From: Chrysomallon squamiferum | Taxonomy: Eukaryota; Animalia; Mollusca | Assembly (NCBI GenBank): GCA_012295275.1 | Contig: CM022678.1 | Span: 8,556,001 to 8,620,000, forward strand | Length of the DNA stretch: 64,000 bases | Reading direction: 5' to 3' | In this document: positions 5,301 through 61,354 of the stretch, piece after piece | Layout: every line of letters begins with the position of its first letter | Numbering within the stretch: the stretch's first letter is position 1 | Translations under genes and position numbers: made by a program | The notes under the pieces: model-generated | The model's database searches: none | The model's input: the letters and a program-made list of their open reading frames with translations, nothing else | What the model was told of the DNA's origin: nothing

Positions 5301-8300
5301 ACAAAAAAAATTTAAATAAATTAAAATAAAACAAAACAAAACAAAACAAAACAAATGTAAAATAAAATTCATTGTAATAATGAGAAAAAACTATATTAAT
5401 AGTAACAGCAACATCAACAAAAACAAAATTAATTACTGATGACTTTTTCATTCTGTACATTTTATGTTTTAACAATTTTGAAGGTATTCAATAATAATAA
5501 TAATAATGATTATTATGCTAAATAGTAATGATATTAATAATAACAAAGGAATACAAAATATCAATATTAACCATAATAATGAAAATAACAACAATAAAAA
5601 TCATAACTATAATCATAGTATTTCTATTTTTACTTGATGTAATTTTTTTGTATTTTGTATATCTTCATCATAAAACACTTTTCCAGTGAAGATGGTGCAA
5701 AACAGCATGTTAATCGAATCGTCGTCCTTGTCCTCGTCCTCATCCTTTGTCTTTTTGTTTGCTTCACCATAATCTATGACAACTACACGCATATCTGACG
5801 TCAGCATTACGTTACGCGCTAGAAAGTAAATAAATTAAATTAAATTAAACTAACCAACTAACTAACTAAGTACTTATTTTATTTATATTGTTATTTTTAA
5901 AATTTAATATTGAGTGATTTTATTTCAGAACTTTTACTATACAACTGTTAAAAAGATTAAAAATACAAAAAGATCATCTTCTGTCTGCTGTTCATATTTC
6001 TTTTGTGAAACATTTTTTGTTTTATAATCTTTTCACTGATATGGTTGAAACAATTTCTTCAATCAACTTTATTTTTAAATCTAAAGATAAAATCACATTT
6101 ATGAAATAGATTATCCGTTTTATAAAACTGACAGTGCTTGATGCTGAAAATGAGATCTTATGAATCAAATCGGGGATTAAATTGCATTACTCACTTTTGA
6201 GTTAGCACTGAACAATTTCTTTATTTTATATACATGTATATATATATATATATATATATATATATATATATATATATATATATATATTTTTTTTTACAAC
6301 AATAAAATAACCAACATAATAAAAATAAAACTTAATAACAATACATTGATCTATTTGTAAAAAGTTTCTTAATCCAGTATTCAAACAGTTAAGTTTAGTC
6401 AGAGTTTTCAGTGATTTTAATTACACACATTTTTACAGACACTCAAACTGTGGACATGGGAGTTGTATCAATACAAAAATAACAAAACCAGCAATAAAAA
6501 TATTTGTCAAATGCTACTTAATAAGATCCATTTTGGTATTCTAAGTACTCTGTAAATATCCAAACTTATTAAAATTCTCCAAACCATGTATGTCTCCATG
6601 AGTCCAGCCCAATCTATGCATCATGTTCACTTGAGACACTAATTCCTTGACAATGAACAAAGCGAGCAGCTGGCGACATTTTTCATCCAGTTGTTCTTTC
6701 CTTATCTTTGTTCTGACATCATCAACTGTAAGAGCTTCATATAAAAAATATACAAACAATAAAAATAATAAAAATAATAATAATAATAATAATAATCATA
6801 ATAATAAAACAATAAAAATTAAAATGAAATAGAATGAAAGACTATGCAAGTATGTAGTTTGACAGAAATCCTTATGAAAATAGTTCAAATAGGAACAAAT
6901 ATTTTATTTAACACTAAAAACATGCATAAACTGTGATTGTGAAATTCTTTTCACATTGATTACGTTGCATAACTTACTTTTTGAACTAGCATTAAGAATT
7001 TCATACAGCCATAATTAATTGTTTTTGTAATTAGCTAATAAATAAAACTATACCTATAACAAAGTTTATTATCTGCAGTTTGAATATAAAATGATAAAAA
7101 GAAACCACCAAACATATACACTGGTAATGGTATGAACGTTTTTCAAAGGCTTAATAAAAATTTGCTTCTTCTCACCATGCTCAATCATTTCCATATGAAT
7201 ATGGATTTTATCACCATCTCTGGTGAGCAGAAGTAACAAGGGCCCCAAGTTTCTTTCATTCAAAGCAAACTGACATATTACTTCATTTTCATGAAAATTA
7301 TTGACTGAAACCTGAAATGCATAAAATTGTCAGTGTAATCCTAACATGAACAAATGAAAATCACTGTGTGAATAAATGGATGGATATTATAAAAGAAATG
7401 AATGAAGAGAATAGATACATAAAGGGATGAATAAAATAATAACTGATCAACAAAATTTCCATTTTATAAATGTTACCAGGTGGTATGTTTATGTTTATAT
7501 ACACGAGAGCATTTCCTATAAAATCAAAATTCACAAGAGGAAATTCAATGAAAGGACTATTTTAATAACGAAAACTTTTCTATGCATCTTTCGATTGATT
7601 AACCAGAGAAAATTAAATATTTTATTTATTTATAGTAACTCACGGTCTTTACTACATGTTTGATTTTACTGGCAACATCTTTAGCTACTCGGACAACACC
7701 TTCACTCCCTTTCCCAAGAATTTTACCAGTGAATTCAAACTGAACACCGTCTTTGTACTCTCCATTTTCCAAAGTTATCTGTAAAAACAATGACATCAAT
7801 CTGATATTCACTATTCTATTTTAATTGTAAATGTTAATTCAGTTTTCTTATAAATGGACATTAGGCATTAAATAGTAACATATTTCAACATTGTACATGT
7901 AATTTGCTTATGTGATATGCTTTATTAAAATCACATTTGAGCCATCAAGAACAACATCAATAGGGATATGATATTCTTAAAATTACCTTTGATTCACAAG
8001 GAACCTGATCCTTGCAACTAGGAAATGGAATGTCTTTCGACATTTCTACAACTTTTCTTAGAAACTCACGACTGGAATGTGCTATAAGAGAAAGAATACA
8101 AGATGTTAATTTAAAATAATTATTATTGCAAGGTTTTAGTGTTCATGAAATTTGAATTAACAAAACATCAGTAATTGTTGTTAAAACAAAGTAATTGTTT
8201 AACAATATTCCTGATGTAAGTTTGTGTATCTCAGAATATTTGAATATGTTTGTGTGTATCTCACTGTCTATATATTAATGTGTTTGTGTATTTATGTAGG

Positions 8301-59724: not shown

Positions 59725-61354
59725 GTTGTATATGACCTGGCTCAAATTTGCTTCTGTATTTTTGGAAACTTGGCTTACTCTCCAGTGTGTTTTGTACTTT
59801 TTTTTCCTTTCAACATCGCTAATCCTTAATATTGTTATTGCAGTTATTATTGATATATATATTTTAATGTATTTCATAATGAATCAACTTCAGTGTGTGT
59901 GTATGTATGTGTGTGTGTGTTAGAAAGAATTACACGAGTATTTATAATTAAAATTAGATGTACAATGTAAGAAATATGTTACTATTTGATATCTTCTGTC
60001 CATTTGTAAGAAAATTGACTGAATATTTACAGTTAAAATAGAAAAGTGGATAGATGTAATCCTATATCTATGAATATAATTACAGATAACCATAACACAG
60101 AAAAAAGTGAAGAACAGGAGGATTTTGTACGTGGCCCTATTATTCATGGAATTGAAAGCAATCCTACGGCCATTGAAATTAATCCTGGAACTAATACAGA
60201 ACATGTGATGAAGATAGTGAGTTACTATAAATAAATAAAGCATTTAATTTCCACTGGTTAGTCAATCAAGAGGCATAGAAAAGTGTTTTATTTATTAAAA
60301 TAGTCCTTTCATTGAATTTCCTCTTGTGTACTTTGATTTTATAGGAAATGCTTTCTTGTACTTAACCATACCACTTGGTAAAATTTGTGGAATAGAGATT
60401 TTGTTTATGATTTATTTTTTTATTCATTCCTTTATTCATTTGTTATTAATAATTTTATTCATAGACTGATATCACCCTTTATTTATCTATACTCTTCATT
60501 CATTCCTTTTTTAATATCCATCCATTTATTCGGTGATTTTCATTCATTAATGTCATGACTGCAGTGTAATAATTTGAATTTCAGATTTCACTTGGAGAAT
60601 ATAACAGAAATGAAGGTGAATGTATGTTGGATTTAAGAGATTCCGAAGGCCTTTCCCAACTGCTTTGAATTAGAATTGACCAAAGTAACGTCTATCTTCA
60701 CATGGAAATAGTTAAGCCAGGTAAACTTTTATTTTTTATTATTAATATTTTTTTTTTTTTTTTTTTTGAATTACTCTTCTGCCTGTGCTATCCAGAAACA
60801 TTATAGATCAAATGTACACACAAGTACTACTATACCTGTTTCGTTTTTATCATTTTATAGTCAACTGCAGATAATAAACTTAGGTATAGGTATAATTTTA
60901 TTAATTGGCTAATTACAAATACATTTAATTATGGCTGCATGAAATTTTTGATGCTAGTTCAGAAAGTAAGTAATGCAACATAAATCAGTGTAAAAAAAGA
61001 AATTCAAATCACAGTATATCATGCATGAAGATACAAAATGTCTTTAGTGTTAAATAAAATATTAGTTCTTATCAGAACTATTTTCATACTGATTTTTGTC
61101 AAAGCACATATTTGCATATTCTTTCATTCTATTTCATTTTAGTTTTTATTTCTTTATTATTATTATTATTATTATTATTATTATTATTATTATTATTATT
61201 ATTCAATATTCAGCAAACACACTGAAAGACATCTTGGAGAAGTATGTAATACATGCAGATTGTCACCTAATGTTTGCTCTCCACAATTTCAAAGGTTTAC
61301 TCAATACAGTCAGAAGGATGCATAAAAAGAACTGGAGTCACGGAGACCTGCATA
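58590..61354 (+). pseudogene. Second, highly diverged copy of the NIK/COT-like kinase gene (G-loop lost, nonsense codon); probably continues beyond the window
   Basis: Exons 58590-58629 (start), 58851-58909 (A), 59401-59502 (B), no exon C, 60086-60216 (..EDFVRGPIIHGIESNPTAIEINPGTNTEHVMKI), 60585-60720 (ISLGEYNRNEGECMLDLRDSEGLSQLL*IRIDQSNVYLHMEIVKP, TGA at 60666), 61214-61354 (ANTLKDIL...VRRMHKKNWSHGDLH). A further acceptor (ttttcag) ends at 63997. Confidence 0.8.

Follow-up and report, generated by a model that had tools for sequence, protein, structure and literature searches.

Considering that few parts of a genome are usually as conserved as the catalytic cores of kinases, how can two copies of a kinase-like gene differ far more in their catalytic exons than in the introns between them? 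This question is raised by a stretch of 64,000 nucleotides (hereafter the window) from the mollusc Chrysomallon squamiferum (assembly GCA_012295275.1, contig CM022678.1, positions 8,556,001 to 8,620,000), in which two kinase-like genes, copy A on the minus strand and copy B on the plus strand, are held in the arms of an inverted duplication. The first-pass annotation of the window proposed a multi-copy intracellular kinase family under strong diversifying selection and/or intron-homogenizing gene conversion with exon swapping. The reading that we favor, at a probability of about 0.62, is that non-allelic gene conversion homogenizes the introns while selection keeps the catalytic exons different.

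The catalytic core is defined by a glycine loop, a beta3 lysine, an alphaC glutamate, an HxD..N catalytic loop and a DFG-like triplet. In copy A, kinase exon 1 (7644..7778, minus strand, as are all exons of this copy) carries the glycine loop GKGSEG and the beta3 lysine (VVK), exon 2 (7176..7311) a likely alphaC glutamate and the hinge (HMEM), exon 3 (6585..6734) a likely alphaE and the catalytic loop (HGDIH), and exon 4 (5634..5818) the catalytic-loop asparagine, DYG, a short acidic stretch replacing the activation segment and a likely alphaF. Copy B consists of one repeat unit and three kinase exons, all on the plus strand. Its exon 1 (60086..60216) has kept the beta3 lysine and lost the glycine loop, its exon 2 (60585..60720) contains an in-frame TGA at 60666-60668, and its exon 3 (61214..61354) ends in HGDLH.

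We found that the introns of the two copies were much more alike than these exons, as had been claimed. The homologous exons 7311-7176 and 60585-60720 share 69 of 136 nucleotides and 11 of 45 amino acids, and the last 31 codons of the next exon share 59 of 93 nucleotides and 13 amino acids. The first 51 nucleotides of the intron after the glycine-loop exon match at 46 positions, beginning with 23 identical letters directly after the donor of kinase exon 1, and 6030-6200 and 63263-63433 are nearly identical (166 of 170 aligned columns). All of these earlier hand counts were reproduced; a further intron block, originally counted as 56/60, lies in an alignment row with 88 of 96 matches. The most conserved intron block (63242..63505, plus strand) matches 5960-6210 at 236 of 251 columns, with a longest identical run of 87 nucleotides. 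Over six intron stretches, 1164 of 1344 columns were identical (86.6%), compared with 128 of 229 (55.9%) in two gap-free parts of the kinase exons (Fisher P = 2e-24, columns treated as independent). Micro- and minisatellites were excluded from the intron counts, namely 6750-6815 (from the count by distance given below), an AT run at about 6230-6290, and 61427-63041.

Gapped DNA alignment of the three kinase exons gave 0.61-0.65, compared with 0.66-0.67 for shuffled sequence, so it is by position, phase of splicing, length and motif residues that they are judged homologous between the copies. The residues common to both copies sit on kinase motifs. The exon lengths differ by 0, 6 (using the form of copy B found in the reads), 9 and 6 nucleotides, all multiples of three, which holds for only 4 of 25 intron gaps. 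Retention of reading frame and motifs led us to reject neutral decay. Moreover, the other exons of the duplicon are as alike as the introns (repeat exons 98.5%, upstream exon 95/96, neighboring CAMSAP exons 83/85 and 85/87). That the introns conceal coding or RNA genes was rejected in view of gaps not in threes, microsatellites and low RNA depth. The possibility that the introns are young high-copy transposons, allowed for by the first-pass annotation, was not borne out within the reach of the window and the read depth: apart from one 72-nucleotide piece, the intron pieces match only their own counterparts in the window, and Rfam gave no match across its 64 kilobases.

Silent sites were compared in 75 codons, a set that omits kinase exon 1, the first 16-18 codons of exon 3 (poor alignment) and the stop codon. 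The proportion of synonymous sites that differ between A and B (pS) was 0.53 (bootstrap 0.36-0.73) and that of nonsynonymous sites (pN) 0.41 (0.34-0.49), corresponding to a synonymous distance (dS) of 0.94, a nonsynonymous distance (dN) of 0.60 and a dN/dS of about 0.6, while the intron distances were 0.06-0.24. High dS beside similar introns is the outcome that had been said beforehand to favor conversion over positive selection. Because pathway counting inflates dS at high dN, codons with the same amino acid were counted separately: 8 of 24 differ synonymously, where the intron substitution matrix predicts 1.9 (P = 0.0002).

These values bear first on positive selection alone, under which the copies would be no older than their introns suggest (about 15% diverged), the exons having raced ahead by amino acid replacement. 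Genes accelerated in this way, as in venoms, have dN above dS and dS near intron divergence. A process of the snake-PLA2 or conotoxin kind by itself does not fit here, where dN is below dS and dS far exceeds the intron distances. In simulations of the synonymous fraction, selection-only models gave P values of 0.008-0.042 in all five settings, and models with old exons gave 0.42-0.82 in all four. Amino acid changes do dominate the younger comparisons described below, and one extreme setting (omega 20) reproduced the third-position identity (P = 0.14). Nevertheless, the excess of synonymous differences at conserved codons remains, and selection alone gives no reason for reduced intron identity beside the exons. 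Such reduction was found: intron identity was 151/199 (76%) within 40 nucleotides of a kinase exon and 159/172 (92%) at 261-400 nucleotides, with the same trend in all three alignment settings, and the 5' arm reaches 95-99%. We thus consider positive selection alone quite unlikely. Since synonymous sites are more diverged than introns and intron identity rises away from the exons, the exons appear old and the introns homogenized, and the resulting divergence peak has shoulders in the flanking introns, uneven among them.

The contrast between exons and introns recurs at three time depths. Within copy A, a young 1.05-kilobase tandem duplication (3306..5446, minus strand; exon pairs 5283-5244/4730-4675 and 4219-4180/3671-3622) has a second small exon alike at 33 of 50 positions between introns alike at 930 of 963 (P = 1e-11); the other small exon has two differences in 40, both changing an amino acid, and the small-exon differences include a 40-nucleotide patch. 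Further young comparisons come from read contigs of four runs in two studies covering 58200-61420, two of the runs being RNA runs labeled metatranscriptomic. One DNA contig has 6 differences from copy B of the window in 129 exon letters and a single one in 257 intron letters (P = 0.0065), with four codons changed and one silent difference; errors in the window assembly could add to this contrast. An expressed paralog differs from kinase exon 3 of copy B at 21 of 143 letters and continues into exon-4-like sequence; the 10 of these 21 differences that were listed, a selection made by the tool, change six of seven codons.

The reads also described the copies themselves. Kinase exon 1 of copy B, which is 131 nucleotides long in the window versus 135 in copy A and hence out of frame there, is two letters shorter in the read contigs and so in frame, with the glycine loop still missing. 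RNA contigs have GT..AG joints at 58909-59401 and 60216-60585, and further join the second repeat exon to kinase exon 1; an RNA contig with no difference to kinase exon 3 of copy B ends at the exon border, and a loose end before 58846 resembles the 3' end of the upstream exon. Two alternative donors, 15 nucleotides apart (58909-58924), are in use in the RNA contigs for the first repeat exon of copy B. Thus, B-type transcripts are spliced and further paralogs exist. In favor of our reading, DNA contigs that align in the introns leave out kinase exon 1, with three different joints. Read contigs carry the intron letters of copy B exactly, with A-like letters on separate contigs, and one contig spans intron, exon and intron at the depth of its neighbors. 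No variant at the TGA of exon 2 was present among the 40 of 141 variant rows listed. Selenocysteine at this codon was rejected on a single check, the corresponding threonine of copy A.

An extension of the conversion model is the exchange of exon cassettes, in which the similar introns would serve as homology arms and whole exons or patches would be swapped to give combinatorial kinases. Each hypervariable exon is indeed flanked by introns 80-98% alike, some differences are clustered (three adjacent letters at 60128-60130, four at 61268-61271, and the 40-nucleotide patch of the small duplicated exon), and the read contigs mix intron letters, 7 of the 15 listed being equal to those of copy A and the others not. 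However, clusters arise under selection too, and no molecule joining exons of two types was seen; we regard the exon swapping proposed at first as very unlikely. A wider version, in which a library of at least 10 kinase and pseudokinase genes with introns as recombination arms and exons as cassettes would give each individual its own recognition of symbionts or pathogens, is unlikely.

Based on these results, we suggest the following course for conversion opposed by selection. The kinase exons would be several times older than the introns appear. Conversion tracts confined to introns or to the 5' part would be tolerated, and tracts covering a kinase exon would be selected against; exons once 30-45% different may also block tracts physically. 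It is to these two steps that the probability given at the outset applies. Selection on the protein is still needed, considering that exon lengths differ in threes, that the shared residues lie on motifs, and that the other duplicon exons are alike. A-type members would then be kinases that are active yet have no regulated activation segment, and B-type members, having no glycine loop, pseudokinases. The weakest step concerns the pressure, which may be a host-microbe conflict with the kinases as sensors, decoys or inhibitor targets; taken by itself we put it somewhat short of even odds. The outcome would be a repertoire of differing kinases and pseudokinases, with microbes as the most likely opponents. 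Of what was first claimed, the multi-copy intracellular kinase-like family with intron-homogenizing conversion is supported by the intron/exon contrast, by dS and by the paralogs in the reads; strong diversifying selection holds insofar as selection is needed to keep the exons apart, though not in the sense of a dN/dS above 1.

A number of observations weigh against this reading. Pairwise dN/dS is below 1 and by itself no sign of positive selection. The intron gradient is non-monotonic and carried mostly by one intron (41/60 near versus 258/291 far from the exon), the remaining two having 93/113 versus 183/206 and 49/60 versus 428/487. The comparison rests on two fully readable copies, and one of them, copy B, is broken as assembled (frameshift, stop, no exon 4). 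In one DNA run, the depth of B-type contigs was about 1400-1900 and that of the remaining types 80-490; this would point to numerous B-type copies and to several types besides, although contig depth is no copy number. Joints between contigs and window at 80% likeness may stem from repeats. What speaks for a kinase at all is the order of the motifs, two PDB matches short of significance and two Atlas leads to Pkinase clusters (0.93 and 0.87). These PDB matches, STK33 with kinase exon 1 of copy A (E = 0.72) and DMPK with its exon 3 (E = 0.62), fall in the expected subdomains; no kinase came up in three further PDB searches, run with exon 4 and with two-sequence profiles, and Pfam assigned none of the eight single exons to a kinase family, returning two unrelated weak hits. 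Formal support is weak because single exons alone were searched. Finally, no result obtained here bears directly on immunity.

On the last point, the main rival to an immune function is a conflict in germline or sperm, in which the same conversion and selection would act on kinases comparable to the mouse Smok sperm kinases, with palindromic arms aiding conversion. The ampliconic, inverted and multi-copy layout, the kinase and likely pseudokinase side by side, and the Smok precedent, as far as its source was covered (PMC9863905), would agree with it. The spliced B-type transcripts in the two metatranscriptomic RNA runs argue against it, weakly, since the tissue is not given. We consider this pressure highly improbable. 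Scarcely credible is a hypermutation or RNA-templated change aimed at exons and including silent sites: both silent and replacement sites are elevated and divergence changes sharply at some borders, as at the 23 identical letters after kinase exon 1, yet exons elsewhere in this transcript and duplicon were spared (98.5%, 95/96, 83/85 and 85/87), and as these are as alike as their introns a general exon hypermutation is disfavored. Equally hard to credit is the view that the introns are alike as functional elements, young transposons or assembly artefacts with copy B an old decayed pseudogene, for although copy B is broken in the window, frameshifted CAMSAP exons nearby point to an error-prone assembly or region and arm A ends at an N gap, there is no Rfam match, the intron pieces find almost only their own counterparts with gaps not in threes, the reads keep B and A-like intron letters on separate contigs and span one exon at even depth, and the splicing of B-type RNA keeps the frame at kinase exon 1.

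The layout of copy A comprises an upstream exon, six 1.9-kilobase units, a pre-kinase exon, the four kinase exons, the duplicated small-exon pair and three last exons. The upstream exon (22304..22399) is the one 95/96 identical to its counterpart in copy B (55873-55968). The tandem units (8461..19904) each hold three small exons coding for about 75 low-complexity residues rich in Ser, Thr, Glu and Pro; they are 98.1-99.3% alike and their exons 98.5%. Units 2 and 6 carry 1-nucleotide indels, so that the frame is broken upstream of 8799, toward the N-terminus. A counterpart of the pre-kinase exon (7987..8081) was looked for in copy B and not found. The last three coding exons (within 2326..2934: 2934-2871, 2648-2603, and 2422-2326 with the stop) are in frame with the kinase exons, and the 13 exons from 8799 to 2326 splice into 385 codons without a stop, with the motifs in kinase order (GKGSEG at residue 75, VVK at 95, HENE at 105, HGD at 189, DYG at 209). 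There is no normal activation segment: an acidic stretch of about 17 residues leads from DYG to the likely alphaF, without an APE. The repeat unit of copy B is single and partial (exons 58851-58909 and 59401-59502, plus strand, 97-98% alike to copy A), and the number of units may vary among copies or individuals. The third kinase intron of copy B contains about 25 copies of a 65-bp minisatellite (61427..63041, plus strand), expanded from intron sequence common to copy A. Farther on, at 63514..63903 (plus strand), the match of copy B passes from the intron preceding exon 4 straight to the one preceding the third-last exon of copy A; its exon 4 is missing, or a weak remnant at 63626-63680 (score 34.5 versus 31.2 for the best shuffle). 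Copy B thus lacks what is expected of an active kinase, having no glycine loop in the window or read form, a TGA in exon 2, and no exon 4 in the window.

The window has the composition of AT-rich animal DNA (28% G+C). The 5' part of arm A (18569..25958, minus strand), with the upstream exon, first repeat unit and head-to-head CAMSAP fragments, pairs with that of arm B (52291..59648, plus strand) at 95.4% over 7460 nucleotides by blastn, or 95-99% per 500 columns. A further part of arm A (26954..29977, plus strand) has partners at 51400-52356 (87%) and 49670-51394 (93%) and stops at a gap of 200 N. This gap, at 29978-30177, coincides exactly with the end of the arm A match, and the inverted layout of both arms depends on the scaffold join there. 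The duplicated unit is the kinase gene head-to-head with CAMSAP fragments, one neighboring exon matching CAMSAP of Gigantopelta aegis (80%), Pinctada imbricata (76%) and Solemya velum (67%), which by itself points to a mollusc, likely a gastropod. The fragments (24958-28140, plus strand; 45156-53300, minus strand) cover residues about 93-161 in both arms, about 1459-1493 in arm A and C-terminal exons in arm B, and no middle part was found in the window. Two of the C-terminal exons look frameshifted, and the fragments are either pseudogene pieces or assembly errors. An element of 70-150 nucleotides (7834-7905, 20191-20260, 58026-58095 and 59859-60014) immediately precedes kinase exon 1 and recurs in inverted orientation upstream of the first repeat unit; it is present in both arms and may mark a rearrangement breakpoint. 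An open frame of 523 codons (31185-32756, plus strand) with five 72-nucleotide repeats gave no Pfam match at E = 0.01 and presumably resembles a coiled-coil and beta-propeller protein of the TRIM/NHL type. Further minisatellites were found at 41017-42614 (76-88 bp) and 47564-47905 (51 bp).

No relatives were found in protein databases with queries of 45-61 residues, which have low power. Word-indexed searches with single kinase exons gave 2 and 8 candidates, none of which scored. The one HMMER hit of kinase exon 1 among 1.84 billion representatives, a repeat-rich protein of bacterial appearance that aligned in six short stretches, was rejected as spurious. Among metagenome and prokaryote contigs, none matched a 37-nucleotide intron pattern. 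In copy A, 11 residues separate the beta3 lysine from the alphaC acid; this short spacing, and the hinge, presumably resemble those of NIK and COT (MAP3K14 and MAP3K8), a lead only and unconfirmed. Neither was listed, up to E = 10, in the five PDB searches that used a single exon or a two-sequence profile as query, again of low power. Standard annotation would miss the family, since it has no database relatives. Lineage-specific kinases as such are ordinary, given the 28 possibly oyster-specific and 21 urchin-specific kinases counted in the oyster kinome, within the part of that report covered (PMC4883820).

The process proposed here is known from other systems, which we compare within the parts of the cited sources that were covered. 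In primate red/green opsins and colobine RNase1B, conversion homogenizes introns and exon differences are maintained by selection; the result is a divergence peak and, like here, non-coding sequence less diverged than coding (PMC3924837). In those genes few sites in part of the gene are selected, whereas here three or four successive exons stand at 24-42% amino acid identity. In ruminant CEACAM32, conversion affects the leader exon and intron and is absent from the ligand-binding exon, and its divergence peak resembles our intron gradient (PMC7042247). The shuffling of domains among primate CEACAM paralogs by conversion in host-microbe conflict is the closest case of exchange among paralogs (PMC8860441), although it concerns extracellular immunoglobulin domains and not a predicted intracellular catalytic core. 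The closest genomic layout is that of the NPIP/morpheus core duplicon, likewise lineage-specific, of unknown function and embedded in segmental duplications, with interlocus conversion, flanks carried along and excess amino acid change (PMC12790995); its dN/dS is above 1, unlike the A/B value of about 0.6 with high dS. Intracellular kinases and pseudokinases shaped by conflict include PKR (PMC4420275) and the plant Pto and ZED1/ZRK decoys (PMC10561179), and Plasmodium FIKK is a fast-evolving multi-copy kinase family (PMC12137140). These likewise have kinase and pseudokinase members side by side; an intron-homogenized, exon-hypervariable layout is not described in the covered parts, and the likeness meant is one of description. 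The literature at large, mainly main texts in open access, yielded no description of this family or of such a pattern in a kinase core.

What is unusual is how deep the contrast runs, that it recurs on three time scales and that it affects an intracellular kinase core. Judging by these analogies, a host-microbe conflict would fit a repertoire made up of diverging kinases and likely pseudokinases. The locus provides an extreme natural test of the model of conversion versus selection, known earlier from milder cases, and its conserved introns offer ready primers for amplifying every copy from any individual. If our reading is right, C. squamiferum has a fast-evolving, possibly immune, kinase family, and core exons that alone are kept different at three time depths point to a strong and continuing conflict inside mollusc cells.

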